The notes: a model not told the origin generated them from the letters alone. A stretch of 64,000 nt of DNA from Nocardioidaceae bacterium (GCA_029266455.1 JAQSWV010000004.1:23330-87329), one strand, 5' to 3'; shown: positions 2,089 through 46,633, counted from the stretch's first letter. Numbers and translations: made by a program.

Positions 2089-5000
2089 ATGTCGCTGTCC
2101 GGCCTCGCCACCCTGGTCACCTCCGACCCGGTGCTGGCCGCTGCTCTCGAGGCGGCGCGTGTCCATCCGGACACGCTGACCACCCTCGACCTGACCGGGC
2201 CTCCCGCGCTGCGGCCGTTCCTGGTCGCGGGGCTCGCCGGCGACGCCGGGCCGGGTGGGTGGTCCGGTGCGCGCACCGTGCTGGCCGTCACCGCGACGCA
2301 GCGGGAGGCCGAGGAGCTCGTCGAAGCGGTCGGCGACCTGCTCGACCCCCATCAGGTCGCGTTGTACCCCGCGTGGGAGACGCTTCCCCACGAGCGCCTG
2401 TCGCCGCGCGCCGACACGGTCGGCCGCCGGCTGGCTGTGCTGCGCCGGCTCGTGCACCCGGGAGAGCCAGGAACGCCCACGGGTCCGCTGCGCGTCCTTG
2501 CAGCGCCGGTGCGATCGGTGCTGCAGCCACAGGTCAGCGGGCTCGCCGACATCGAGCCGGTCCGGCTGGCCGCCGGCGACGAGGCCGACCTGGACGACGT
2601 GGTGCGCCGGCTGGCAGGTGCCGCGTACTCGCGGGTCGACCTGGTGGAGCGCCGTGGCGAGTTCGCCGTGCGCGGGGGAATCGTCGACGTGTTCCCGCCC
2701 ACCGAGGAGCACCCGTTGCGGGTGGAGTTCTGGGGCGACACGGTCGAGGAGGTGCGGTCCTTCGCGGTGGCCGACCAGCGATCACTGGACGCGGCGCCGG
2801 AGCTGTGGGCGCCGCCGTGCCGCGAGCTGCTGCTGACCGACGACGTCCGCCGCCGCGCCGCCGCCCTGGTCGACGAGCACCCCTCGCTCGCCGAGATGCT
2901 CACCCGGCTGGCCGACGGACACGCGGTCGAGGGCATGGAGTCGCTGGCGCCGGTGCTCGTCGACAGCATGCAGATGCTCACCGACCTGCTGCCTCCCGCC
3001 TCGCACGTCGTCGTGTTCGACCCCGAGCGGGTGCGCGCCAGGGCGGCCGACCTCGTCGCGACCAGCGAGGAGTTCCTCCAGGCGTCATGGGGCGCCGCGG
3101 CGGTCGGCGGTGAGGCGCCGGTCGACCTGGGCGCCAGCGCCTACCGCTCCCTGGCCGACGTGCGTGCCGACGCGATCGCGAGCCGGCTGCCGTGGTGGAG
3201 CACCTCACCGTTCGGGCTCGACCCCGTGGATGACGGTGCCATCCGTACGGCAGACCCCCTTCGCACCGAGGCCGGCGAGGTCGTGTCGCTCGATGTGGAC
3301 GTCGACGCCGGCGCGGTGACGTCGCGGACGGTGGGGTTCGCCCCCGCACCGGTCTACCGCGGCGACACCGACGGGGCGGTCGCCGACGTCCGGGCCTGGC
3401 TGGCCGCCGGGCACCGGGTCGTCGTGGTCACGCCCGGCGCCGGGCAGGCCGCGCGCACCGCCGAGCTGCTGGCCGAGCACGATGTTGCCGCCCGGCTCAC
3501 CGATGCGCTCCCGGTCGACCCCGAGCCCGGTGTCGTCCACCTGGCCCAGGGCTGTCTCGGGCACGGGCTCGTCTCCGAACGACTGTCGCTCGCGGTGCTG
3601 ACCCACGACGACCTGGTGACCAAGCGTGCCGCCAGCCGCGACGAGCGGCGGTTGCCGGCCCGCCGCAAGCGACAGGTGGATCCCCTCGAGCTGACGCCGG
3701 GCGACCTGGTGGTGCACGACCAGCACGGGGTGGGCCGATACGTCCAGATGGCTCAGCGCACCGTGCAGGGGGCCACCCGCGAGTACCTCCTGGTCGAGTA
3801 CGCGCCGTCCAAGCGGGGACAGCCGGGCGACCGGCTGTTCGTCCCCACCGACCAGCTCGACCAGGTGACCCGGTACATCGGCGGCGAACAGCCGGCGCTG
3901 GACAAGCTGGGCGGCGGCGACTGGGCCAAGCGCAAGGGCCGGGCGCGTCGTGCCGTCCGCCAGATCGCGGCCGAGCTGATCAAGCTGTACGCGGCCCGCC
4001 AGGCGACGAAGGGCCACGCGTTCGGCCCGGACACCCCGTGGCAGCGAGAGCTGGAGGAGGCCTTCCCGTACGTCGAGACCCCGGACCAGCTCTCGACCAT
4101 CGAGGACGTCAAGGCCGACATGGAGCGCACCGTGCCGATGGACCGGCTGGTATGCGGCGACGTCGGTTACGGCAAGACCGAGATCGCCGTTCGCGCCGCG
4201 TTCAAGGCGATCCAGGACGGGCGGCAGGTGGCCGTGCTGGTCCCCACGACGCTGCTGGTGCAGCAGCACACCGAGACGTTCAGTGAGCGGTACGCCCAGT
4301 TCCCGGTCGTGCTCAAGGCATTGTCACGGTTCCAGTCGGACGCCGACGCCAAGGCGGTGCTGGCCGGTCTGGCGGACGGGAGCGTCGATCTGGTGATCGG
4401 CACCCACCGGCTGCTGGCGCCCGAGACCCGGTTCAAGAACCTGGGCCTGGTGATCGTCGATGAGGAGCAGCGCTTCGGGGTCGAGCACAAGGAGCAGCTC
4501 AAGCACCTGCGCGCCGCGGTCGACGTGCTGTCGATGTCGGCGACCCCGATCCCGCGCACCCTGGAGATGGCGATCACCGGCATCCGCGAGATGTCCACCA
4601 TCATCACCCCGCCAGAGGAGCGGCACCCCGTGCTCAGCTTCGTCGGTGCCTACGACGACGGCCAGGTGACCGCCGCCCTGCGTCGCGAGCTGCTGCGCGA
4701 CGGTCAGGTCTTCTACATCCACAACCGGGTGCAGTCCATGGAGCGGGTGGCCGACCACCTGCGCAGCCTGGTGCCCGAGGCACGGATCGCCACCGCGCAC
4801 GGACAGATGGGCGAGCACCGGCTCGAGCAGGTGATGGTCGACTTCTGGGAGAAGCGCTTCGACGTGCTCGTGTGCACCACCATCGTCGAGTCGGGGCTGG
4901 ACGTGTCCAACGCGAACACCATGGTGATCGAGCGCGCTGACGCGCTCGGCCTGTCCCAGCTGCACCAGCTGCGCGGCCGGGTGGGCCGCGGGCGCGAGCG

Positions 5001-5745
5001 CGCGTACGCCTACTTCCTCTACCCGACCGACAAGCCGCTGACCGAGACCGCCCACGACCGGCTGGCCACCATCGCGCAGCACTCCGAGCTCGGCGGCGGC
5101 ATGGCGGTCGCGCTGAAGGACCTCGAGATCCGTGGCGCCGGGAACCTGCTCGGCGGCGAGCAGTCGGGGCACATCGCCGATGTCGGTTTCGACCTGTACG
5201 TGCGGCTCGTCGGTGAGGCCGTCCAGGAGTTCCGTGGCGAGGGACCCGGTGAGGAGCCGGAGGGGAGCATCGAGCTCCCGGTCGACGCGCACCTGCCGCA
5301 CGACTACGTGCCGAGCGAGCGGCTGCGGCTCGAGGCGTACAAGCAGCTCGCGGCGGTGCGCACCGAGAACGAGGTCCAGGAGATCCGCGCGGAGCTCGTC
5401 GACCGCTACGGCGACCCACCGCCGCCGGTCGAGACCCTGCTGCACGTCGCGAGACTCCGGGCCCGGGTCAAGGGCGCCGGGCTGACCGATGTCACCGCGT
5501 CCGGACCGCACATCAGGTTCGGCCCGGTCGACCTCACCGAGTCCGGCAGGCTGCGGCTGCAGCGGCTCTACCCGAAGAGCGTCGTGAAGCCCGCGGTGCG
5601 TACGATCCTCGTGCCGCGGCCGAAGACGGCGCCGGTGGGTGGGAGCCCGCTGCGCGACGAGGCACTGCTGGACTGGTGTCGCCGCGTCATCGACGATGTC
5701 CTGGACCGACGAGACGACCCGGTCGTCGCCGGGGCGGCGTCATGA
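2089..5745 (+). CDS. mfd: transcription-repair coupling factor
   Basis: 1218 aa. It has a UvrB-homology N-terminus, a CarD-like RNAP-interaction region (DLVVHDQHGVGRY), the helicase motifs GDVGYGKTE and DEEQRFG, and a TRG/C-terminal domain. Confidence 0.97.
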   Translation: MSLSGLATLVTSDPVLAAALEAARVHPDTLTTLDLTGPPALRPFLVAGLAGDAGPGGWSGARTVLAVTATQREAEELVEAVGDLLDPHQVALYPAWETLPHERLSPRADTVGRRLAVLRRLVHPGEPGTPTGPLRVLAAPVRSVLQPQVSGLADIEPVRLAAGDEADLDDVVRRLAGAAYSRVDLVERRGEFAVRGGIVDVFPPTEEHPLRVEFWGDTVEEVRSFAVADQRSLDAAPELWAPPCRELLLTDDVRRRAAALVDEHPSLAEMLTRLADGHAVEGMESLAPVLVDSMQMLTDLLPPASHVVVFDPERVRARAADLVATSEEFLQASWGAAAVGGEAPVDLGASAYRSLADVRADAIASRLPWWSTSPFGLDPVDDGAIRTADPLRTEAGEVVSLDVDVDAGAVTSRTVGFAPAPVYRGDTDGAVADVRAWLAAGHRVVVVTPGAGQAARTAELLAEHDVAARLTDALPVDPEPGVVHLAQGCLGHGLVSERLSLAVLTHDDLVTKRAASRDERRLPARRKRQVDPLELTPGDLVVHDQHGVGRYVQMAQRTVQGATREYLLVEYAPSKRGQPGDRLFVPTDQLDQVTRYIGGEQPALDKLGGGDWAKRKGRARRAVRQIAAELIKLYAARQATKGHAFGPDTPWQRELEEAFPYVETPDQLSTIEDVKADMERTVPMDRLVCGDVGYGKTEIAVRAAFKAIQDGRQVAVLVPTTLLVQQHTETFSERYAQFPVVLKALSRFQSDADAKAVLAGLADGSVDLVIGTHRLLAPETRFKNLGLVIVDEEQRFGVEHKEQLKHLRAAVDVLSMSATPIPRTLEMAITGIREMSTIITPPEERHPVLSFVGAYDDGQVTAALRRELLRDGQVFYIHNRVQSMERVADHLRSLVPEARIATAHGQMGEHRLEQVMVDFWEKRFDVLVCTTIVESGLDVSNANTMVIERADALGLSQLHQLRGRVGRGRERAYAYFLYPTDKPLTETAHDRLATIAQHSELGGGMAVALKDLEIRGAGNLLGGEQSGHIADVGFDLYVRLVGEAVQEFRGEGPGEEPEGSIELPVDAHLPHDYVPSERLRLEAYKQLAAVRTENEVQEIRAELVDRYGDPPPPVETLLHVARLRARVKGAGLTDVTASGPHIRFGPVDLTESGRLRLQRLYPKSVVKPAVRTILVPRPKTAPVGGSPLRDEALLDWCRRVIDDVLDRRDDPVVAGAAS

Positions 5746-9096: not shown

Positions 9097-9501
9097 GTGG
9101 GCTCCACCCGGGCACCTGCGGGTCCGCGCTTCACCAGCCGGGCCATCGTGCTGGGCGTGGTACTGCTGGTGCTGGTGATCTCGTACGCGTCCAGCCTCCG
9201 GGCCTGGCTCGACCAGCGCGAGCAGATCGCTGAGACCCGCGAGCAGATCTCGTCGGTGCGCCAGCAGGTCGACGACCTCGAACGGGAGCGGCGCCGCTGG
9301 GCCGACGACGCGTACGTCGAGCAGCAGGCGCGCGCACGGCTCGACTTCGTGATGCCGGGCGAGACCGGCTACCGGGTCATCACCCCGGATGGCGCGACGA
9401 TCGACACGCAGGTTGAACCGCGGCCGTCCGACCAGGCGGCCCCACGCGACTGGTACGAGACCATGTGGGCCAGCGCCCGGCGCGCGGGCAGGGCCGGGTG
9501 A
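9097..9501 (+). CDS. ftsB: septum formation initiator (FtsB/DivIC family)
   Basis: One N-terminal TM helix followed by a coiled coil (REQIAETREQISSVRQQVDDLERE). Its position directly after eno matches other Actinomycetota. Confidence 0.8.
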   Translation: MGSTRAPAGPRFTSRAIVLGVVLLVLVISYASSLRAWLDQREQIAETREQISSVRQQVDDLERERRRWADDAYVEQQARARLDFVMPGETGYRVITPDGATIDTQVEPRPSDQAAPRDWYETMWASARRAGRAG

Positions 9502-10022
9502 GCGCGACAGCAGACTGCTCGGACTCCGACCTGGCCGCCGTGCGAGCCCAGCTCGGTCGTCCGCCGCGCGGGGTGCGGTCGGTGGCGCACCGGTGCCCCT
9601 GCGGCCTACCCGACGTGGTCGAGACCGCCCCCAGGCTGCCGGACGGGACTCCGTTCCCCACGTTGTTCTACGTGACCTGCCCCCGGCTCACGGGCGCGGT
9701 GTCCACGCTCGAGGCGGCCGGGCTGATGCGGGAGATGACGGCGCGGCTGGACACCGACACCTCGCTGGCCACGGCGATGCATGCGTCGCACCAGGCATAC
9801 CTGGCCCGGCGGGAGCAGCTGGCCGTGGTGCCGGAGATCGCCGGGATCTCCGCCGGGGGCATGCCGGGCCGGGTGAAGTGCCTCCACGTCCTCGTCGGGC
9901 ATGCCCTCGCCCAGGGGCCGGGCGCGAACCGGCTCGGCGACGAGGCGCTGCAGCTGGTCGAGCCGTGGTGGGCGGCCGGGCCCTGCCGCGACCCCGCGGG
10001 CGGCGGGACGAGCGTGCCGTGA
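9498..10022 (+). CDS. DUF501 domain protein
   Basis: Contains CPCGLPDVVETAPRL.DGTPFPTLFYVTCP, the DUF501 signature. The GTG at 9498 overlaps the ftsB stop (GTGA). The ORF-track start is 9465. Confidence 0.8.
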   Translation: MSATADCSDSDLAAVRAQLGRPPRGVRSVAHRCPCGLPDVVETAPRLPDGTPFPTLFYVTCPRLTGAVSTLEAAGLMREMTARLDTDTSLATAMHASHQAYLARREQLAVVPEIAGISAGGMPGRVKCLHVLVGHALAQGPGANRLGDEALQLVEPWWAAGPCRDPAGGGTSVP

Positions 10023-10981
10023 GGGTGGCCGCGGTCGACTGCGGCACGAATGCGCTCAAGCTGCTGGTCACCGACCTCGACGCCGCGACCGGCGCGCAGA
10101 CCGACCTCGTGCGCGAGCTGCGCATGACCCGCGTCGGCGAGGGTGTTGACAGCGTGGGCCGGATCACCCCCGCGGCGCTGCGCCGCACCCTGGCCGGCTG
10201 CGACGACTACGCCGCCGCCATCGACCGGCTGGAGGTCGAGAGACTCCGATGTGGAGCGACGTCGGCGGCGCGGGACGCAGCCAACGGCGCCGAGCTCGTG
10301 ACCGGGATGCGCGCGCGCTTCGGCGTGCCGATCGAGGTGCTGAGCGGAGAGCGGGAGGCGGCGCTGTCGTACGCGGGGGTGGTCCATGGGCTGCGCCGGT
10401 CCGGCGTGACGGCCGCCGGCCCGATGCCTGCCGGCCAGACGCTCGCCGAGCCGATGCTGGTCGTCGACATCGGGGGTGGCTCGACCGAGCTGATTCTCGG
10501 TCAGGGGACGCAGGTGCGGGCGGCGGCGTCGGCCGACGTGGGCGCGGTCCGCCTCACCGAGCGACATCTGCGCGACGACCCGCCGACGGCCGCGCAGCGC
10601 GACGCCGCGGTGGCCGACGTCGATGCCGCGCTGCTGACCCTGCCGGTGCGACCCGCCGACGCGGGCACGCTGGTGGGCGTGAGCGGCACGGCGGTGACCG
10701 TGGCCGCGCTCGCGCTGGGACTGGACACCCTCGACCCGGATCGCCTGCACGGGGCGCGGATCAGGGCCGACGCGGTACGGGACGCGTGTGCCGCGCTGCT
10801 GGCTGCGCCCGTCGCCGAGCGGCTGGCGCTCGGCGTGATGCATCCCGGTCGAGCCGATGTGATCGGCGGAGGCGCCATCGTGCTCGACCGGGTGCTGGTG
10901 GCGGCCCGGGCCGAGGAGCTCGTCGTCAGCACCTGCGACGTCCTGGACGGCATGGCGTGGTCCCTGGTGGCACCCGCATGA
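10019..10981 (+). CDS. Ppx/GppA family phosphatase (exopolyphosphatase-like)
   Basis: The N-terminus [17 protein letters not shown] and an internal DIGGGSTEL motif fit the ASKHA fold of Ppx/GppA. The GTG at 10019 overlaps the DUF501 stop. Confidence 0.85.
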
Positions 10982-11937
10982 CGACCCCGTCGGCGCCCGA
11001 CGACGGCCGTACGCCCCGGCTGCCTCATCCGGGCACCGGCCGGCCCTTCCCGAGCCCGGTCCCGCCCGGGACAGGGTGGCCTGACGATCCCGCCGACGCG
11101 ACCACCCCGGTGGCGGTCGACGCCGCCTCGGTGGTGGGGCTGGCCGACCCGGGAGCGGGTCTGGCCGAGCTGAGCGCCCGCGTCTCCGTCTGCCGGGCCT
11201 GCCCGAGGCTGGTCGGGTGGCGCGAGCAGGTGGCGGTCGAGAAGCGTCGAGCGTTCGCCGCCGAGCCCTACTGGGGGCGTCCGTCCACGGGGTTCGGCGA
11301 CCCGCAGCCCCGGGTGCTCGTGGTCGGGCTGGCGCCCGCGGCGAACGGCGCCAACCGCACGGGCCGGGTCTTCACCGGTGACCGATCGGGCGAGTGGCTG
11401 TTCGAGGCCCTGCACGCCGCAGGTCTGGCCACCAGCAGCGAGAGCCGGCACGCCGGTGACGGGCTGACGCTGCCCGGCGCACGCATCGTCCCCGCCGTAC
11501 GCTGCGCCCCTCCCGGCAACGCTCCGACCCCGGCGGAGAGGGACACCTGCGCGCCATGGCTGCGGGCCGAGGCCACGCTGGTCTGGCCGACCGTCGGCTC
11601 GGTGGTGGCGCTCGGCCGGTTCGCCTGGGACGCGGTGCTGCGGCTGGTGCGGGACAGCGGTGGCACCGTGCCGCGACCGGTGCCACGGTTCGGGCACGCG
11701 GCCGAGTCGGTGCTCGCCCGCCCGGGAGGAGGCCGGGTGGTACTCGTCGGCAGCTTCCACCCCAGTCAGCAGAACACGTTCACCGGCCGGCTGACCATGC
11801 CCATGCTCATGGCCGTGCTGCGCCGGGCGGCCGCTCTGGCGACACCTGACCGGGTCCGCGGCCCGGTCGGCGACCCACCCGCGGGCGGCGCCAGCAGCGG
11901 TCCCCCCACCGACCCCGAAGGTTCCGGCGGCACCTGA
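10978..11937 (+). CDS. uracil-DNA glycosylase, family 5 type (UdgB-like, Fe-S)
   Basis: Contains the motif [24 protein letters not shown] (a GLAPA-type motif A), Cys ligands (CRAC...C) and a late HPS motif. The ATG at 10978 overlaps the ppx stop (ATGA). Confidence 0.8.
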
Positions 11938-11950
11938 TACAACCGCACCC

Positions 11951-13276
11951 ATGGCGTCGGGCGAGCACGGCAACGGGGTGGCGCAGCGGCTCTACGACCT
12001 GCTGGTGCACCTGTTCGACGTCGAGCCGCCGCTTCGGCTGGCCGCGTGGGACGGCACCGAGGCAGGTGCCGCCGACGGTCCGACGCTGCACGTGCGCAGC
12101 CGGCGGGCGGTCCGCCGGCTGCTGTGGAACCCCGGTGAGCTGGGGCTGGCCCGCGCGTACGTCTCCGGCGAGATCGATGTGGACGGAGACCTCACGGAGG
12201 GCCTTCGGACGCTGGCCGAGTACGGCAGCCTGGTCGCGGCCAAGCCGGCGCTGACGGCCAGCGACCGCCGCGAGGTCCTGCGCACCGCGGTGCTGCTCGG
12301 TGCTGTCGGTCCGGCGCCGAAGGCCCCGCCGGAGGAGCGGCTGCTCGCCGAGGGTCGACGGATCGGTACCCGTGGCGTCCGCGGCGCCCGTGAGCTGGCG
12401 GCCGCAGACGTCCCGGACGACCGCGGCCTGGGCCTGATGCGCTCCGTGCTGGGCGACTCGCTGGCGTACTCCTGTGCCTACTGGTCGAAGACTCCGGTCG
12501 AGGACCCGGCTCCCGGTCCGGGCGCGGTGCAGCCCGAGGACGACATCGACGCGGCACAGCGCGCCAAGCTCGACCTGATCTGTGACCGGTTGGGGCTCGA
12601 GCCGGGGATGCGGCTGCTCGATCTCGGGTGCGGGTGGGGCGCTCTGGTCGTCCACGCCGTCCGGTACCGCGGCGTCGAGGCCGTCGGCCTGGTGCGGTCG
12701 GCCGATCGGGCCGAGGTCGTCAGGCAACGGCTCGGCGCCCTCGACCTGTCCGACCGGGCGGAGATCCGGCTGGGCGACGTCGATGCCGTCGACGACGGTC
12801 CGTACGACGCGATCGCGGCGATCGAGTCGCTCGAGCATGTCCCCGAGGCGGACCTGCTGGAGCAGATGGCCCGCTTGCAGCATCTGCTGCGCCCGGGCGG
12901 CCGGCTGCTGATCCAGGCACTGACCCGTCGGGCGGGACCCGGTCGCCCAGGGCCGAGATTCATGACCGCCTACGTGCTGCCCGAGGGTCCGCTGCCGCCG
13001 ATCGGCGTGCTGGTGTCCGCCGTCGAGGACGCCGGTGTCGAGGTGCGGTCGGTGGAGGCGTGGCGCGAGCACTACCCCCGCACCCTGCAGGCGTGGCTGC
13101 GCCGGGTCGACCAGCAGCCGGACGCCGTGGCCGAGGTGGTGGGGGCGACCCGGCTGCGGGTGTGGCGGCTGTCGCTGGCGCTGTCGACGGTCGGGTTCGA
13201 GCGCGACCACATCGGCGCGCACCAGCTGGTGGCCGTGCGTCCCCACGCCGACGGCCGGTCGGGCATGCTGGCGTAG
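11951..13276 (+). CDS. cyclopropane-fatty-acyl-phospholipid synthase family SAM-dependent methyltransferase
   Basis: Has the SAM motif LLDLGCGWGAL, and the overall length and layout of the CFA/mycolic-acid methyltransferase family. Confidence 0.85.
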   Translation: MASGEHGNGVAQRLYDLLVHLFDVEPPLRLAAWDGTEAGAADGPTLHVRSRRAVRRLLWNPGELGLARAYVSGEIDVDGDLTEGLRTLAEYGSLVAAKPALTASDRREVLRTAVLLGAVGPAPKAPPEERLLAEGRRIGTRGVRGARELAAADVPDDRGLGLMRSVLGDSLAYSCAYWSKTPVEDPAPGPGAVQPEDDIDAAQRAKLDLICDRLGLEPGMRLLDLGCGWGALVVHAVRYRGVEAVGLVRSADRAEVVRQRLGALDLSDRAEIRLGDVDAVDDGPYDAIAAIESLEHVPEADLLEQMARLQHLLRPGGRLLIQALTRRAGPGRPGPRFMTAYVLPEGPLPPIGVLVSAVEDAGVEVRSVEAWREHYPRTLQAWLRRVDQQPDAVAEVVGATRLRVWRLSLALSTVGFERDHIGAHQLVAVRPHADGRSGMLA

Positions 13277-13319
13277 CCGGGGTCGACGCGGGACCCGCCC
13301 GCCGCGGGACCCCGGCCGG

Positions 13320-13394
13320 GCCCCCGTAGCCCAATCGGCAGAGGCAGACGGCTTAAACCCGTCTCATGTGTGGGTTCGACCCCCACCGGGGGCA
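13320..13394 (+). tRNA. tRNA with anticodon UAA (would decode Leu UUA). It has a Leu-like D-arm and A73 but only a 6-nt variable region.
   Basis: Hand fold of the 75-nt gene:
- Acceptor stem GCCCCCG/CGGGGGC, 7/7 paired.
- D-arm GCC-CAAUCGGCAGA-GGC.
- Anticodon stem GACGG/CCGUC with loop CUUAAAC.
- Variable region UCAUGU.
- T-arm GUGGG-UUCGACC-CCCAC.
- Discriminator A, with no encoded CCA. Confidence 0.8.
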
Positions 13395-13589
13395 CGGGGA
13401 CGGATCGACGGGTCGGGACGGTGGGGAGCGGCGCCGACAGACCGTCGCCCGGTGGGGTGGGAGGCGGAACGTAACGGAGCCTCACGGCGTTGTACCGGGT
13501 GCAGCCACGGGAGGCCTTCCACCGGACAGGCCCGCGGTAGGCTGTGCCCCCGGCCCCCGCCGGGGACGGTGACTTCTCGGAGGACGAGG

Positions 13590-14480
13590 ATGCAGAGCAG
13601 CAACCCGGTGTTCACCCGCAACGACACGTTCAACGGCCGCGCCGCGCGGAGTGGCGGCACGACCCGCTCCAGCCCGTCGACCTGGTCCGTGGGAAGCCCG
13701 GGGCAGGTCCCGGGGCAGACGTCCGGCCAGGGCTATGGCCAGGGCTACGACCGGGGCACCGCGACGCCGCCCTCGGTGGGCACGGATCGCATGACCATCG
13801 ACTCGGTCGTGCAGCGCACCGCAGCGACGCTCGGTCTGCTGGTGCTCTCGGCCGCCGTCACGTGGGTCCTGATCGGCGAGATCGGTGGCAGGTCTGAGGC
13901 GGCCGCCGACAACCTGGCCCAGGCCCAGGCCCTGCTGCTGATGGGTGCGCTCGGTGGTTTCGCGCTGGCCATGGTCAACAGCTTCAAGCGGGTCATCAGC
14001 CCCACGCTGGTGCTGGCGTACGCCGCTGTGCAAGGGGTCGCGATCGGTGCGATCTCCAAGGTGCTCGAGACCTGGTACGACGGCGTCGTCCTGGGGGCCG
14101 TGTTCGGCACTGTGGCGGCCTTCGCCGGCACCCTGACCGCCTACAAGGTGCTCAACATCCAGGTGACGGCCAAGTTCCGTCGCGGCGTGGTGGCCGCGAT
14201 GTTCGGCTTCGTGGCCCTGGCGCTGATGGACCTCGTGCTCAGCTTCTTCGGCGCCGACTTCGGCTTCAACGGCTTCGGCACGCTCGGTCTCATCTCCAGC
14301 GTGGTCGGCGTCGTGTTGGGTGTGCTGATGCTGATCCTCGACTTCGACTTCGTCGAGAGGGCCATCGCGGCCGGCGCCCCGGAGCGCGAGTCGTGGCGGG
14401 CGGCCTTCGGGCTCACCGTCACCCTCGTGTGGCTCTACATCGAGCTGCTGCGGATCCTCGCCATCCTGCGCGGCGAGTGA
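13590..14480 (+). CDS. Bax inhibitor-1/YccA family membrane protein
   Basis: The ATG at 13590 is preceded by ggagga. The N-terminus MQSSNPVF is followed by a Gly/Gln-rich linker and 7 predicted TM helices. The ORF-track start at 13035 is an extension across the tRNA. Confidence 0.85.
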   Translation: MQSSNPVFTRNDTFNGRAARSGGTTRSSPSTWSVGSPGQVPGQTSGQGYGQGYDRGTATPPSVGTDRMTIDSVVQRTAATLGLLVLSAAVTWVLIGEIGGRSEAAADNLAQAQALLLMGALGGFALAMVNSFKRVISPTLVLAYAAVQGVAIGAISKVLETWYDGVVLGAVFGTVAAFAGTLTAYKVLNIQVTAKFRRGVVAAMFGFVALALMDLVLSFFGADFGFNGFGTLGLISSVVGVVLGVLMLILDFDFVERAIAAGAPERESWRAAFGLTVTLVWLYIELLRILAILRGE

Positions 14481-40172: not shown

Positions 40173-40202
40173 CGCCGCTACCTGTCAAAGGAGATTCCCC
40201 AG

Positions 40203-41459
40203 ATGGCTGCCATCACAATGAACAACATCGTCAAGAAGTACGGTGACGGATTCGCCGCGGTCAACGACGTGAGCCTGGACATCGCCGACGGTGAGCTGAT
40301 GATCCTGGTCGGACCCTCCGGCTGCGGGAAGTCCACGCTCCTGCGCATGATCGTCGGGCTCGAGGACATCACCTCGGGCGACATGCTGATCGGCGGCAAC
40401 CGCGTCAACGACAAGGCGCCCCGCGACCGCAACCTGTCCATGGTGTTCCAGAACTACGCCCTGTACCCCCACCTGTCGGTGTACGAGAACATTGCGTTCC
40501 CGCTGCGGCTGGCCAAGACGCCGGACGACGAGATCAAGCGGAAGGTCGAGGCGGCGGCGGATCTGCTGGAGCTGAAGGAGCACCTCGACCGCAAGCCCGC
40601 GAACCTGTCCGGCGGCCAGCGGCAGCGGGTGGCGATGGGCCGGGCGATCGTCCGCGAGGCCGACGCCTTCCTCTTCGACGAGCCGCTGTCGAACCTCGAC
40701 GCCAAGCTCCGCGGACAGATGCGCACCGAGATCTCGCGGCTGCAGCGGTCGCTCGGCATCACCACCGTCTACGTGACCCACGACCAGACCGAGGCCATGA
40801 CGCTGGGCGACCGGGTGGCCGTGCTGCGCAAGGGCCTGCTGCAGCAGGTGGCGTCTCCGCGCGAGCTGTACGAGCAGCCGCTCAACCTCTTCGTCGCCGG
40901 CTTCATCGGATCGCCGCCGATGAACTTCCTGCCGGCCAAGGTCGAGGGGTCCGCACTGCAGACGCCGTTCGGGAAGTTCCAGCTCGACGAGCGCATGGCC
41001 TCCAAGGTGTCCGGCAAGGAGCTCGTGCTCATGGGTGTGCGGCCTGAGTACTTCGAGGACGCCTCGCTCGTCGACGAGGCAAAGCGCGACAAGGGGTCCA
41101 CCTTCACCGCGCACGTCGACGTCACTGAATGGCTGGGGGACGCGCAGTACGCCTACATTCCGTTCGAGGCGTCCGAGGCGGTGACCGAGCAGCTGCGCGA
41201 CCTCTCGCGCGAGCTCGACAGCGACCAGCTGCGGACCCAGGCCATCGTGTCCATCGACTCGACCAGCCGTATCCGCTCGGGCCGTGACGCCGAGTTCTGG
41301 GTCGACACCCGCAAGATCCACGTCTTCGACCCCGAGTCGGGCGACAACCTGACCCGCGACGAAGAGGCCGGGGCCGAGCTCACCCGGCAGGTGACCGAGG
41401 ACCGCGAAGAGGACCAGAAGCGGGCGGCTGAGGACGAGAAAAGTGACGCGCTGCGGTAG
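40203..41459 (+). CDS. ABC transporter ATP-binding protein, MalK/UgpC/SugC type, with an acidic C-terminal tail
   Basis: Has Walker A GPSGCGKST, signature LSGGQRQR, Walker B FLFDEPLS, and a C-terminal regulatory (TOBE-like) domain. Confidence 0.9.
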   Translation: MAAITMNNIVKKYGDGFAAVNDVSLDIADGELMILVGPSGCGKSTLLRMIVGLEDITSGDMLIGGNRVNDKAPRDRNLSMVFQNYALYPHLSVYENIAFPLRLAKTPDDEIKRKVEAAADLLELKEHLDRKPANLSGGQRQRVAMGRAIVREADAFLFDEPLSNLDAKLRGQMRTEISRLQRSLGITTVYVTHDQTEAMTLGDRVAVLRKGLLQQVASPRELYEQPLNLFVAGFIGSPPMNFLPAKVEGSALQTPFGKFQLDERMASKVSGKELVLMGVRPEYFEDASLVDEAKRDKGSTFTAHVDVTEWLGDAQYAYIPFEASEAVTEQLRDLSRELDSDQLRTQAIVSIDSTSRIRSGRDAEFWVDTRKIHVFDPESGDNLTRDEEAGAELTRQVTEDREEDQKRAAEDEKSDALR

Positions 41460-41500: not shown

Positions 41501-41547
41501 TCCCACTTCACGACGGATCGTCCGGCACGTGCCTGCCGGTGAAGGGA
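41501..41547 (+). promoter_or_regulatory. imperfect hairpin in the leader of the second ATPase gene that pairs the purine-rich SD region (candidate msiK RNA motif)
   Basis: CTTCAC (41506-11) pairs with GTGAAG (41539-44). An inner stem CGGCA/TGCCG lies at 41523-27/41534-38. GAAGGGA sits just before the ATG at 41558. Confidence 0.3.
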
Positions 41548-41557
41548 TGGACCTCCC

Positions 41558-42655
41558 ATGGCCACGGTCACCTATGCGCAGGCGTCGCGGATCTACCCCG
41601 GCGCAGAGCACCCAGCGGTCGACAAGCTCGACCTCGAGATCCACGACGGCGAGTTCATGGTCCTCGTCGGGCCGTCAGGCTGCGGCAAGTCCACGTCGCT
41701 GCGGATGCTGGCCGGCCTCGAGGAGGTCTCGGACGGCACCATCCACATCGGCGACCGCGACGTCACGCACATGCCGCCGAAGGACCGCGACATCGCCATG
41801 GTCTTCCAGAACTACGCGCTCTACCCCCACATGACGGTGGCCGACAACATGGGTTTCGCGCTCAAGATGGCCGGCATCGACAAGGAGGACCGGGCCAAGC
41901 GGGTCCGGGAGGCGGCGAAGCTGCTCGACCTCGAGGACTTCCTCGACCGCAAGCCCAAGGCGCTGTCGGGTGGGCAGCGCCAGCGGGTCGCGATGGGCCG
42001 GGCGATCGTCCGCGAGCCGCAGGTGTTCTTGATGGACGAGCCACTGTCCAACCTGGACGCCAAGCTCCGGGTGTCGACCCGGGCCCAGATCGCCGCCCTG
42101 CAGCGCCGGCTGGGCGTCACCACGGTCTACGTCACCCACGACCAGATCGAGGCCATGACCATGGGTGACCGGGTGGCGGTGCTCAAGGACGGCCTGCTGC
42201 AGCAGGTCGACAGCCCGCTGAACCTGTACGACACCCCGAAGAACGCCTTCGTGGCCGGCTTCATCGGCTCCCCGGCCATGAACCTGTTCGAGGTGCCGGT
42301 CGAGGGCGACGTCGTCAAGCTCGACAACCTCGACGTGCCGGTCAGCCGCGACGTCAAGCAGCGCATCGGCGGCGCCAGGACCGTGACCCTGGGCGTGCGA
42401 CCCGAGTCCCTCAAGGTGGGCAGCGAGAACGACCAGGGCGTGCCGGCCACGGTCGACGTGGTGGAGGAGCTCGGAGCGGACGCCTACGTCTACGCGCACC
42501 GGCAGGGCGAGGAGGCCACCGAGGGGAGCACCCTGTTCGTCGCCCGGCACGACGCGCGGATGTCGGCCAAGCCGGGATCGACCGTGCGCTTCGCCGTTGA
42601 CCCCGACAAGATCCACCTGTTCTCGGTGGAGACGGGCGAGCGGCTCAGCGACTGA
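41558..42655 (+). CDS. ABC transporter ATP-binding protein, MsiK/MalK type
   Basis: Has the Walker A, signature and Walker B motifs. By eye it is roughly 60% identical to the preceding ATPase over the N-terminal 240 aa. Confidence 0.9.
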   Translation: MATVTYAQASRIYPGAEHPAVDKLDLEIHDGEFMVLVGPSGCGKSTSLRMLAGLEEVSDGTIHIGDRDVTHMPPKDRDIAMVFQNYALYPHMTVADNMGFALKMAGIDKEDRAKRVREAAKLLDLEDFLDRKPKALSGGQRQRVAMGRAIVREPQVFLMDEPLSNLDAKLRVSTRAQIAALQRRLGVTTVYVTHDQIEAMTMGDRVAVLKDGLLQQVDSPLNLYDTPKNAFVAGFIGSPAMNLFEVPVEGDVVKLDNLDVPVSRDVKQRIGGARTVTLGVRPESLKVGSENDQGVPATVDVVEELGADAYVYAHRQGEEATEGSTLFVARHDARMSAKPGSTVRFAVDPDKIHLFSVETGERLSD

Positions 42656-43630: not shown

Positions 43631-46600
43631 GTGTCGTGGGTCGACGCTCCTGCCCCCGATCAACTCCTCGGGGAAGGGGCTACGCTCGTGGGCACGGTGT
43701 CGCGAGCTGCACGGTCGGCGAGGGGAGTGCTCGCGGTCGCTACCGCCGCGCTCGCCCTTCCCGCCCTCGCGCTGCCATCGTCGCCCACTGAGGCGGCCCC
43801 TGCGGCCGACGGGGACTACAGCGGCGGCTCCTACATCGTCGTGCTTGCGCACCCGCCCGCCGCGTCGTACCGAGGCGGGTTTCGGACCCTCGCCCGCACC
43901 GCGCCGCGGGCTCCTGCGGCGTACGACGCGTCGTCGGTGGCGGTGGATGAGTACACCCGGTTCCTGCGCCGTGAGCAGAATCAGGTGGCCGACGCGGTCG
44001 GTGCTGACCCGATCTACCACTACACCACCAGCCTCAACGGTTTCGCCGCTCCGCTGACCGCCGCCCAGGCCGGCTCACTGTCCCGCCGGGACGGTGTCGT
44101 CGCAGTGGTCCCCGACCGGGTGCGCCAGCTGCAGGACCGGCCGAGCGCGGCCCGGTTGCCGGTGTCGCCCGACGTCGCCACCACACCGGGCCCACGTCGC
44201 CACGCTCGGGCCGGTGCTGGTGCCGGTGTGGTGATCGGCGTGGTCGACACCGGGATCGACTCCGACAGCCCGGCATTCGCCCGGCGTACAGTCGCGACGC
44301 CCACCACGTACACGGGCGCCTGCTCGGCCGGCGGGGACCCCGACCCCGCGGCAGCCTTCCGCTGCGGGGGCAAGCTGCTCGGCGGGCGCTACTACGCGCG
44401 GGGCCAGGGTGGCGGCGCGGCGTTGTGGAGCGGCGAGTACCGGTCGCCCGAGGACCAGCAAGGGCACGGAACCCGGGTGGCATCGGCTGCTGCCGGTGCT
44501 GCGACGGTCAGGTCGAGCGAGTCCGGCGCCGAGCTCGCCCGGCTGACCGGAGCATCCCCTGGCGCCCTGCTGGCGTCCTACAAGGTCTGCTGGGCAGCCG
44601 AGGACGGCGGCGCCTCGTGCCTGACCTCGGACACCCTCGCCGGGATCGACCAGGCGGTGGCCGACGGTGTGGACGTGCTGAGCCACGGCGTGGCCGGTGC
44701 GGCGACCGACATCGCGGACCCCGTCGAGCGCGCCTTCCTGCATGCTGCCGACGCCGGGGTCTTCGTCGCGACCGCCGCCGGTAACGGCGGGCCCCGGCCC
44801 GCGTCGACCGTTCACCCGGGTCCCTGGCTCACCACTGCGGGGGCCATCGGCCAGGACCCCCCGGCGGCCACGCTGGTGCTGGGCAACGGCGAGAGACACG
44901 AGGGCACATCGGTGGCACCGGCGGATGTCGCCGCACCGGTGCTGCTCGGAGCGGACGCAGCCGCCGACGGCGCCGGCAGGTCGGAGGCACGACTGTGCCT
45001 GCCCGGCTCACTGGACCCTGACGCCGTCTCCGGCGCGATCGTGGTCTGCGATCGTGGCACCAGTGACCGCGTGGAGAAGAGCGTGGCGGTCGGGGCCGCC
45101 GGTGGTGTGGGGATGGTGCTGGTCAACCAGGCCGCCGGCAGCCTCGAGCCGGACCTGCACGCGGTGCCCTCCGTGCACCTGCCCGCGGCCGCCTACGACA
45201 GCCTGTACGCGTACGCAGGCAGCGCGGACGCCGCGACGGCGGTCATCCGTGCCGACGCCGCGGGTGGCGGGGGACCACCCCCGCGGCTCGCCCGGTTCTC
45301 CGGTCGCGGGCCGACGCGCGCGATCGACGGCGACCTGCTCAAGCCTGACCTGGTCGCTCCCGGCGTGCAGGTGCTCACCGCCCTGCCCGGTCATGAAGGC
45401 GACGGCGGTCCACGCAGCCGGGCCCGTTACGGCCTGTCGACGGGGACGTCGGTCGCCGCGGCACAGGTGGCCGGCCACGCCGCACGGGTCATCCAGGCCC
45501 ATCCCGACTGGTCGCCGATGGCGGTGAAGTCAGCCCTGATGACCACCGCTCAACCCGGCGCCGGGTCCGCCGGCCCGTTCGGCGAGGGAGCGGGCGCGAT
45601 CCGTGCCCGCCGCGCCGTGGACCCGGGCCTGGTGGTGGACAGCGGGTGGCGCGACTGGGCCGCCTTAGTGCCCGGCGACGCTGCTGGGGGCACATCGACG
45701 GCTCGGCCGTTGCCGGCGAGGGATCTCAATGTCCCCTCGGTGGTGATCGGCGATCTGACCGGACGCCGGACGGTGGACCGGACGGTGACGAACGTCGGTG
45801 CGGACACCGCGACCTACTCGGCAGACACCGTCGACATCGACGGAATCAGCATCACCGCGTTGCCGTCGGTCTTCACGCTCCGTCCCGGCGAGCGCCAGAC
45901 GATCAGCCTCCGCATCGAGCGGGACAACGCCGCCCTGGGCAGGTACGAGACGGGTGCCCTCGTGCTGAACGACGGGCCCGCCGGGCACCGGGTCAGACTG
46001 CCGGTGGCGCTGCGGCCCGTCGGCATCGAGGCGCCGGCGCAGGTGCGGCTGGACGACCGGCTCCGGTCGCTGACGACGACGTCCGGCATCCGTGGCACCT
46101 TGCGGGCGCGTGTGCACGGGCCAGTGCAGGGCGAGGACACCGACGCCAGTGGGTCGGACACCGGAGGTGTCGACTTCGACGCGGGCATGCCCGGGCTGTG
46201 GTGGCAGACGATCGACGTCGGTGGACCACGCGAGTGGTGGCGGATCCAGGCGCTGGCCGACGACCCGGGCGACGACCTCGATGTGTTCCTGGTCGACGAG
46301 GGCGGCAAGGTGGTCGCGTCGTCGGCCACGCCGAAGCCCTCCGAGACGGTGACCGTGCGCGGTCTCGGGGCCGGCACCTACCGGCTCGCGGTCCAGCCCT
46401 GGTTCGTGGCCGACCCGTCCGGCGACACGACGTTCACGGTCCGTACGTTCGACGTCGCGCCACCGGCGACGGGCGCGCTGAGCGTCGAGCCGCGGCGCCA
46501 GGGGGCATCGCCCGCGCGGCGCAACACCTGGTCGCTCGGCCGGGCATCGCAGTCCGGGACACCGTGGTTCGGCTGGATCGGCTGGCACGCAGGCGACGAC

Positions 46601-46633
46601 CAGGTGGGTCGGACCCTGGTGTCGTGGGACTGA
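43631..46633 (+). CDS. secreted subtilisin-like serine protease (S8 family) with I9 propeptide, PA-type insert and a long C-terminal beta-rich region
   Basis: The catalytic triad blocks are VVDTGID, HGTRVASAAAG and GTSVAAAQVAGHAA. An I9-like propeptide (YIVVL...FAAPLT) is present. It contains a TTA codon at 45665. An alternative start is the GTG at 43688. Confidence 0.9.
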   Translation: MSWVDAPAPDQLLGEGATLVGTVSRAARSARGVLAVATAALALPALALPSSPTEAAPAADGDYSGGSYIVVLAHPPAASYRGGFRTLARTAPRAPAAYDASSVAVDEYTRFLRREQNQVADAVGADPIYHYTTSLNGFAAPLTAAQAGSLSRRDGVVAVVPDRVRQLQDRPSAARLPVSPDVATTPGPRRHARAGAGAGVVIGVVDTGIDSDSPAFARRTVATPTTYTGACSAGGDPDPAAAFRCGGKLLGGRYYARGQGGGAALWSGEYRSPEDQQGHGTRVASAAAGAATVRSSESGAELARLTGASPGALLASYKVCWAAEDGGASCLTSDTLAGIDQAVADGVDVLSHGVAGAATDIADPVERAFLHAADAGVFVATAAGNGGPRPASTVHPGPWLTTAGAIGQDPPAATLVLGNGERHEGTSVAPADVAAPVLLGADAAADGAGRSEARLCLPGSLDPDAVSGAIVVCDRGTSDRVEKSVAVGAAGGVGMVLVNQAAGSLEPDLHAVPSVHLPAAAYDSLYAYAGSADAATAVIRADAAGGGGPPPRLARFSGRGPTRAIDGDLLKPDLVAPGVQVLTALPGHEGDGGPRSRARYGLSTGTSVAAAQVAGHAARVIQAHPDWSPMAVKSALMTTAQPGAGSAGPFGEGAGAIRARRAVDPGLVVDSGWRDWAALVPGDAAGGTSTARPLPARDLNVPSVVIGDLTGRRTVDRTVTNVGADTATYSADTVDIDGISITALPSVFTLRPGERQTISLRIERDNAALGRYETGALVLNDGPAGHRVRLPVALRPVGIEAPAQVRLDDRLRSLTTTSGIRGTLRARVHGPVQGEDTDASGSDTGGVDFDAGMPGLWWQTIDVGGPREWWRIQALADDPGDDLDVFLVDEGGKVVASSATPKPSETVTVRGLGAGTYRLAVQPWFVADPSGDTTFTVRTFDVAPPATGALSVEPRRQGASPARRNTWSLGRASQSGTPWFGWIGWHAGDDQVGRTLVSWD

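Follow-up and report, generated by a model that had tools for sequence, protein, structure and literature searches.

The 64,000-nucleotide stretch of DNA analyzed here (the window) carries a single tRNA gene, which very probably encodes a functional cytoplasmic type I tRNALeu(UAA) of the native actinomycete kind, that is, a leucine-charged UUA decoder with a short variable loop in the chromosomal slot that bldA occupies in Streptomyces (Table 1). The gene, its fold, family membership, conservation, and synteny, and the rarity of its codon were read directly; expression, leucylation, decoding range, and evolutionary polarity are what we infer. Short-armed tRNALeu are already documented in actinomycetes and are common in their phages, and the window tRNA is an ordinary member of that family. 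The shared slot with bldA is the new point, apparently unreported, and a modest evolutionary lead.

Table 1. Features of the tRNA locus, with positions counted from the first nucleotide of the window
Feature	Position	Strand	Basis
Type I tRNA-Leu(UAA) gene, short variable loop, 75 nt	13320..13394	+	ARAGORN, Rfam, covariance model R1, sequence
Leu-type D-arm, GCC-CAAUCGGCAGA-GGC	13329..13345	+	Sequence, Rfam alignment
Anticodon UAA (T13354-A13355-A13356), in loop CUUAAAC (13352-13358)	13354..13356	+	Sequence, ARAGORN, Rfam
Variable loop UCAUGU, 6 nt, no stem	13364..13369	+	Sequence, family alignment
Discriminator A73	13394..13394	+	Sequence
cfa-like cyclopropane fatty-acyl phospholipid synthase gene, upstream synteny anchor	11951..13276	+	Pfam CMAS, 2e-55
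GC-rich hairpin between cfa stop and tRNA 5' end	13276..13316	+	Folding; inverted repeat I3
BaxI_1 (Bax-inhibitor-like) membrane protein gene, downstream anchor	13590..14480	+	Pfam BaxI_1, 2.5e-75
divIC-DUF501-ppx-UDG block, conserved upstream synteny	9097..11937	+	Domain matches, locus comparison

A short-armed tRNALeu gene and its family

The original prediction described a leucine-type cloverleaf that lacks a long arm and reads UUA, and every structural detail it gave (the stems, UAA anticodon, D-arm, 6-nt variable loop, and A73) is present in the sequence. The gene reads GCCCCCG-UA-GCC-CAAUCGGCAGA-GGC-A-GACGG-CUUAAAC-CCGUC-UCAUGU-GUGGG-UUCGACC-CCCAC-CGGGGGC-A, with all 7 of 7 acceptor pairs formed (GCCCCCG/CGGGGGC), an anticodon arm of GACGG-CUUAAAC-CCGUC, and a T-arm of GUGGG-UUCGACC-CCCAC. 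The D-arm consists of a 3-bp stem and an 11-nt loop, with a C13/A22 mismatch and with A14, A15, G18, and G19 in place; U8-A14, A15-U48, and A73 are likewise all present. CCA is not encoded, the bases that follow the gene being CGG.

Software agreed with the predicted fold and anticodon. ARAGORN called a tRNA-Leu(taa) at 13320-13395 as the sole tRNA in 64 kb, and Rfam model RF00005 matched 13320-13394 over its full length (model positions 1-71) at 52.3 bits (gathering score, 29; E = 2.4e-8), with 13:22 as the only nonstandard pair. The minimum free energy fold recovered the acceptor, anticodon, and T helices (-34.3 kcal/mol; z = -2.5). The tRNA is not a sequencing artifact, since three independent JGI metagenome contigs, the only records with the exact cfa protein, carry the tRNA and the whole cfa-BaxI spacer in a form identical to the window.

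A BLAST search with the 75 nt returned full-length matches with 76 to 86% identity, all of them armless. Anticodons of the fetched loci were taken from ARAGORN, and the remaining phage matches are given by their GenBank tRNA-Leu annotation. Short tRNALeu(taa) genes were found in Nonomuraea gerenzanensis, Nocardia farcinica, an Arthrobacter replicon, Jiangellales genomes, a soil MAG, and Streptomyces Karimacvirus phages, and a tRNA cluster on a Curtobacterium plasmid includes another; further short tRNALeu matches lay in Corynebacterium and Mycobacterium phages. On a Tsukamurella tyrosinosolvens replicon (L002), a short tRNALeu(CAA) at 3001-3077 adjoins a site-specific integrase gene (3090-4280), which suggests that tRNAs of this family are used for integration as well. 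A pattern scan of IMG/VR recovered at least 120 contigs with the scaffold (L010-L129), and the matches listed comprised 97 TAA and 31 CAA tRNAs, all 73 to 78 nt long. Type I tRNALeu is native to Actinomycetota and widely phage-borne. The premise of the original prediction that every bacterial tRNALeu is class II is outdated: the short form has been published for Streptomyces and is abundant in actinobacterial genomes and phages, so that the rule breaks down systematically across Actinomycetota and many phages, where a short tRNALeu is no reason to call a gene aberrant or a pseudogene.

Gap-free BLAST matches, mostly annotated as tRNA-Leu, were also seen in phages of Erwinia, Salmonella, Hafnia, Pseudomonas, Acinetobacter, Prochlorococcus, and Enterococcus; within this set, the gene for which the short form was verified is that of Erwinia phage phiEa21-4 (L269, 294-370), a short tRNALeu of 74 nt plus CCA with anticodon caa.

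The family was characterized from an alignment (A2) of 75 distinct short tRNALeu members. Standard pairs filled 98.3% of cells, compared to 33 to 48% paired in slid controls, and both-sided (compensatory) changes occurred at 17 of 20 pairs. The covariation score of 0.726 was reached by none of 500 shuffles, which scored 0.20. The D-stem, A14, A15, G18, and G19 were invariant in 75/75 members, these being bases fixed by the search patterns. A73, U8, and U48 lay outside those patterns, and the identity positions were conserved in nearly every member (A73, 75/75; A15/U48, 74/75; U8/A14, 74/75). The variable loop was 5 nt long in 66 members and 6 nt long in the other 9, with the consensus NCAGU. 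The alignment also contains a G1-U72 wobble pair in 35 of the 75 members. Position 38 (13358 in the window; column 39 of the alignment) is C in the window tRNA, in the tRNA of the nearest MAG (L130), in Streptomyces phage CeilingFan, and in Streptomyces bldA (CUUAAAC), and it is A (CUUAAAA) in 56 of 75 members; this difference may bear on the modification of A37.

We searched IMG/VR by the D-arm motif alone (TAGCCCAA-N-GGCAGAGGC), without an anticodon constraint, and recovered at least 178 tRNAs whose anticodon belongs to Leu (taa, 99; caa, 39; tag, 32; gag, 4; cag, 2; aag, 2). Among the matches listed (L210-L268 included), all tRNAs were short and three carried non-Leu ARAGORN calls, namely, Gly, Phe, and a "tRNA-Stop(tta)" (L104) that is TAA by pattern-based extraction. 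The short Leu scaffold is very common in viral contigs, and its occurrence as one body with all six Leu anticodons, which belong to two unrelated codon boxes, is the pattern predicted for a LeuRS that recognizes the body and is blind to the anticodon.

A covariance model (R1) was trained on 72 short tRNALeu sequences, with the window tRNA and that of the nearest MAG left out. The window tRNA scored 85.7 bits and the MAG tRNA 89.7 bits, compared to 41 to 62 bits (maximum, 61.7) for neighboring class I tRNAs (Ile, Met, Lys, Thr, and Gln) in the same loci and 38 to 45 bits for Streptomyces bldA. These scores place the window tRNA within the short-loop tRNALeu family of actinomycetes and phages and, together with the D-arm, A73, and the UAA anticodon, bear out the reading of a leucine-type UUA reader without a long arm.

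The bldA slot

The gene order in the window is eno-divIC-DUF501-ppx-UDG-cfa-tRNA-BaxI-DUF4287-GDSL lipase-PALP/CBS, and the tRNA starts 43 nt past the cfa stop codon. The hairpin in this spacer (-30.7 kcal/mol; z = -2.2) may be an mRNA 3'-end or processing structure, and a shorter hairpin lies at the equivalent place between cfa and the tRNA in the nearest MAG (5278-5294). GC content is uniform over the tRNA region (70 to 76%). A scan of 12900-13700 found no sigma-70-like promoter or intrinsic terminator, and it was uninformative because this DNA is 73% GC. Farther along the window, GC content dips to 0.645 to 0.674 over 38 to 42 kb. An msiK RNA motif (RF01747; 41494-41554, plus strand; 52.4 bits; E = 6e-10) immediately precedes a gene for a MalK/MsiK-like ABC ATPase (41543-42655), and a second MalK-like ATPase gene (40173-41459) lies just before the motif.

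With one genome per GTDB species, the closest relative of the cfa product was that of an uncultured Actinomycetota MAG, L130 (76% identity), followed by those of Jiangellaceae (Phytoactinopolyspora) at about 50%. Since Streptomyces homologues were only 40 to 45% identical, these matches place the host in an uncultured actinomycete lineage outside Streptomyces. L130 has the same gene order from eno to CBS (eno-divIC-DUF501-ppx-UDG-cfa-tRNA-BaxI-DUF4287-GDSL-CBS), with a 74-nt short tRNALeu(UAA) 28 nt past cfa. The two tRNAs differ at four positions (three substitutions and one extra variable-loop base in the window), while the spacers on either side are diverged or deleted; because the tRNA is nearly unchanged where its flanks diverge or are lost, it is under purifying selection.

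We ran ARAGORN on 80 cfa loci with 4-kb flanks and compared them by tblastn of the window proteins. Short UAA tRNAs also occur 1.2 to 1.9 kb downstream of cfa at another locus (L136) and at three loci from Jiangellales, and Nonomuraea has the order UDG ... short UAA tRNA-BaxI-DUF4287. At 13 Streptomyces and Actinacidiphila loci, the cfa homologue is followed after 1.3 to 3.9 kb by a tRNALeu(UAA) gene of 83 to 88 nt, and most of these loci have divIC-DUF501-ppx upstream as well. These longer tRNAs have a single-G D-loop and a 15- to 17-nt arm starting UGCCC or UGGCC, which fits the published description of bldA. Some Streptomyces loci probably miss bldA by a few bases, because it often lies 3.8 to 3.9 kb past cfa and the flanks extended 4 kb. 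At two loci (L183 and L188) the order is cfa-bldA-BaxI, with the tRNA directly upstream of BaxI, and BaxI is the downstream anchor common to the window, Nonomuraea, and Streptomyces. The comparison with the Streptomyces bldA locus proposed in the original prediction is therefore positive, and the window tRNA is the positional counterpart of bldA in the slot ppx-UDG-cfa-[tRNA]-BaxI.

Sharing a slot does not extend to sharing a sequence. With the D-loop and variable region set aside, identity to the window tRNA is 53% for bldA, compared to 97% for the tRNA of L130 and 81% each for the Nonomuraea and phage short forms. The idea that the extra arm of a long-armed tRNALeu collapsed, which would imply a recent deletion confined to this lineage, is not sustained, since the short form stands at the same locus in several orders and is the closer match. 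A simple arm deletion of bldA was considered as a candidate and rejected on the 53% identity and on differences in the D, anticodon, and T stems. With only 53% identity despite the shared slot, the window tRNA is not a collapsed bldA, and by this comparison it belongs to a different tRNALeu sequence lineage.

Since at least four lineages outside the streptomycetes carry the short form in this slot, parsimony over these few lineages suggests that it is probably the older state at the locus. Whether the slot is ancient in Actinomycetota and originally short-armed, with the long-armed, G19-lacking bldA as a replacement in Streptomycetaceae and the window preserving the pre-bldA state, we regard as an evenly balanced question. 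If so, the replacement by bldA would coincide in time with the emergence of developmental control through UUA. Short-armed tRNALeu(UAA) genes in the bldA slot of other lineages offer a testable handle on how and when bldA gained its distinctive form, and the contrast between occupants of the slot bears on whether arm type alters LeuRS kinetics enough for UUA-dependent regulation. No paper on bldA-slot synteny and no survey of short tRNALeu across Actinomycetota was found in our literature search, the coverage of which was incomplete, leaving absence unproven.

A search of PLSDB found bldA-like sequences only on Streptomyces plasmids and none in the 11.85-Mb Nonomuraea record. A total of 14 Streptomyces plasmids, mostly from S. 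anulatus, carry long-armed bldA-like tRNALeu(UAA) genes that are 79 to 90% identical to chromosomal bldA; such plasmid-borne extra UUA decoders could bypass chromosomal bldA control.

Charging, decoding, and alternative explanations

In Streptomyces coelicolor, four tRNALeu isoacceptors, bldA (UAA) among them, are long-armed and one (CAA) is short-armed, and both types are substrates of the only LeuRS in the cell (Fan et al. 2019, NAR 47:6369, PMC6614811). The short tRNALeu(CAA) is leucylated in vitro and in vivo, with a kcat/Km about 2-fold below that of the long-armed form (6.25 versus 14.2 s-1 uM-1) (PMC6614811). Its charging depends on the U8-A14 pair and on a variable loop no shorter than 5 nt, and not on A73; the variable-loop variants assayed were deletions and a long-arm swap (PMC6614811). 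The loop of the window tRNA is 6 nt. E. coli LeuRS cannot charge the short Streptomyces tRNALeu, and the ability to do so is conferred by the leucine-specific domain of LeuRS (PMC6614811). With its anticodon changed from CAA to UAA, the S. coelicolor short tRNALeu is reported to suppress a bldA mutant (Pettersson & Kirsebom 2011, cited in PMC6614811). Work on mycobacteria points in the same direction: in Mycobacterium tuberculosis, a long variable loop is named for tRNALeu-2, -3, and -5 only (PMC11541572), which would leave two short tRNALeu if the numbering means five in total, and a short-loop tRNALeu(TAG) has been reported from mycobacterial tRNA clusters (PMC6582537).

These results change the grounds for expecting the window tRNA to be charged. 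The original prediction argued from E. coli LeuRS, the enzyme that fails on the Streptomyces short form, and it counted A73 as a Leu identity element, which A73 is not for S. coelicolor LeuRS (PMC6614811). Its expectation that an armless tRNALeu could still receive leucine has been demonstrated for the S. coelicolor short tRNALeu(CAA) (PMC6614811) and would carry over to the window tRNA by analogy.

Under the proposed mechanism, the gene would be transcribed either together with cfa or from an internal promoter, both of which are possible. The transcript, in which the tRNA begins just past the hairpin at 13276-13316, would be processed at both ends, and CCA would then be added posttranscriptionally because none is encoded. 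By analogy with S. coelicolor, an actinobacterial-type LeuRS of the host would charge it with leucine (PMC6614811); no LeuRS gene lies within the 64-kb window. Such an enzyme would neither read the anticodon nor need a long arm; recognition would instead depend on core features of the tRNA (U8-A14, the D-arm/elbow, and a variable loop that is 5 nt or longer). By general decoding rules, the charged tRNA would read the very rare UUA and probably also UUG by U34 wobble. Across 55 GC3-supported ORFs in the window (19,242 codons), TTA occurred once and TTG 91 times. The only in-frame TTA is codon 679 of a secreted-type subtilase gene (I9-S8-PA-fn3_6) at 43631-46633 on the plus strand.

The alternative that survives best, though we consider it unlikely, is that the gene encodes a regulatory tRNA like bldA, limiting or temporally controlled, such that genes with UUA are expressed only under certain conditions. 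It has the same chromosomal slot as bldA, UUA is as rare as in Streptomyces (1 in 19,242 codons, in a single secreted subtilase gene), and the loop CUUAAAC with C38 is common to bldA, most short members having A38. However, the host is not a streptomycete, and Chandra & Chater argue that bldA probably has no such role in development outside Streptomycineae (PMC4255298). No adpA-type target was seen, and if the cell has no separate tRNALeu(CAA), the 91 UUG codons would also be part of the load of this tRNA, which would then not be dispensable. A bldA-style regulatory role is possible but unsupported.

Much less likely is that the gene is an accessory tRNA recently acquired from a phage or mobile element and not the cell's own UUA decoder. 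The closest database matches do include a Streptomyces phage tRNA-Leu(taa) (81% identity), short tRNALeu genes are frequent in viral contigs, and related copies lie beside an integrase in Tsukamurella and within a plasmid tRNA cluster in Curtobacterium. Yet integrase and phage genes are absent from the flanks, the surrounding housekeeping block is conserved across orders, GC content is uniform over the region, and the nearest MAG has the same gene in the same place, with 97% identity in the compared stems and loops.

We give even less credence to a mis-identity tRNA, a class I body charged by another synthetase so that UUA is read as another amino acid. Anticodon-shifted mistranslating tRNAs have been reported from Streptomyces, and the class I shape is atypical of the textbook bacterial tRNALeu. 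The D-arm, however, has the Leu layout and is tied almost exclusively to the six Leu anticodons, A73, U8-A14, and A15-U48 are conserved, and leucylation of a sibling short tRNA has been shown both in vitro and in vivo (PMC6614811). A pseudogene in decay, derived from a formerly long-armed tRNALeu, which the missing arm and the one extra variable-loop nucleotide relative to relatives might suggest, is the least probable reading of all given four perfectly paired helices, strong conservation relative to the flanks, identity in three metagenome contigs, and 85.7 bits on a family model with extensive covariation.

Comparison with known systems

The native, leucine-charged UUA decoder that we favor most resembles the S. 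coelicolor tRNALeu(CAA), which is likewise an actinobacterial cytoplasmic tRNA with a short stemless loop, U8-A14, G18G19, and A73 that reads a UUR codon; its variable loop, ACAGC (PMC6614811), is close to the family consensus NCAGU. The window tRNA differs in its anticodon (UAA, not CAA), in its loop length (6 nt, not 5), in its uncultured host lineage, and, compared by published description, in occupying the bldA slot and not the Streptomyces CAA slot. In comparison, bldA shares with it UAA in CUUAAAC, A73, a host in which UUA is extremely rare, and the neighborhood divIC-DUF501-ppx-cfa ... tRNA-BaxI, but has a 15- to 17-nt variable arm with a stem and a single-G D-loop.

Phage short tRNA-Leu are similar in size (74 to 75 nt) and have the same D-arm; that of Streptomyces phage CeilingFan (taa) is 81% identical to the window tRNA and has a 6-nt variable loop, TCAAGT. 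The phage genes belong to phage tRNA clusters, whereas the window gene is embedded in a block of chromosomal housekeeping genes that is conserved. Animal mitochondrial tRNALeu(UUR) shares the class I shape, UAA, and A73 but belongs to a different lineage with organellar structural peculiarities, and human mt-tRNALeu(UUR) is not charged by S. coelicolor LeuRS (PMC6614811). Canonical class II bacterial tRNALeu, as in E. coli, have the same A14, A15-U48, G18G19, and A73 as the window tRNA and differ in their long variable arm. The D-arm layout of the E. coli tRNALeu, GCN-NAAUNGGNAGA-NGC, is the same as that of the window tRNA.
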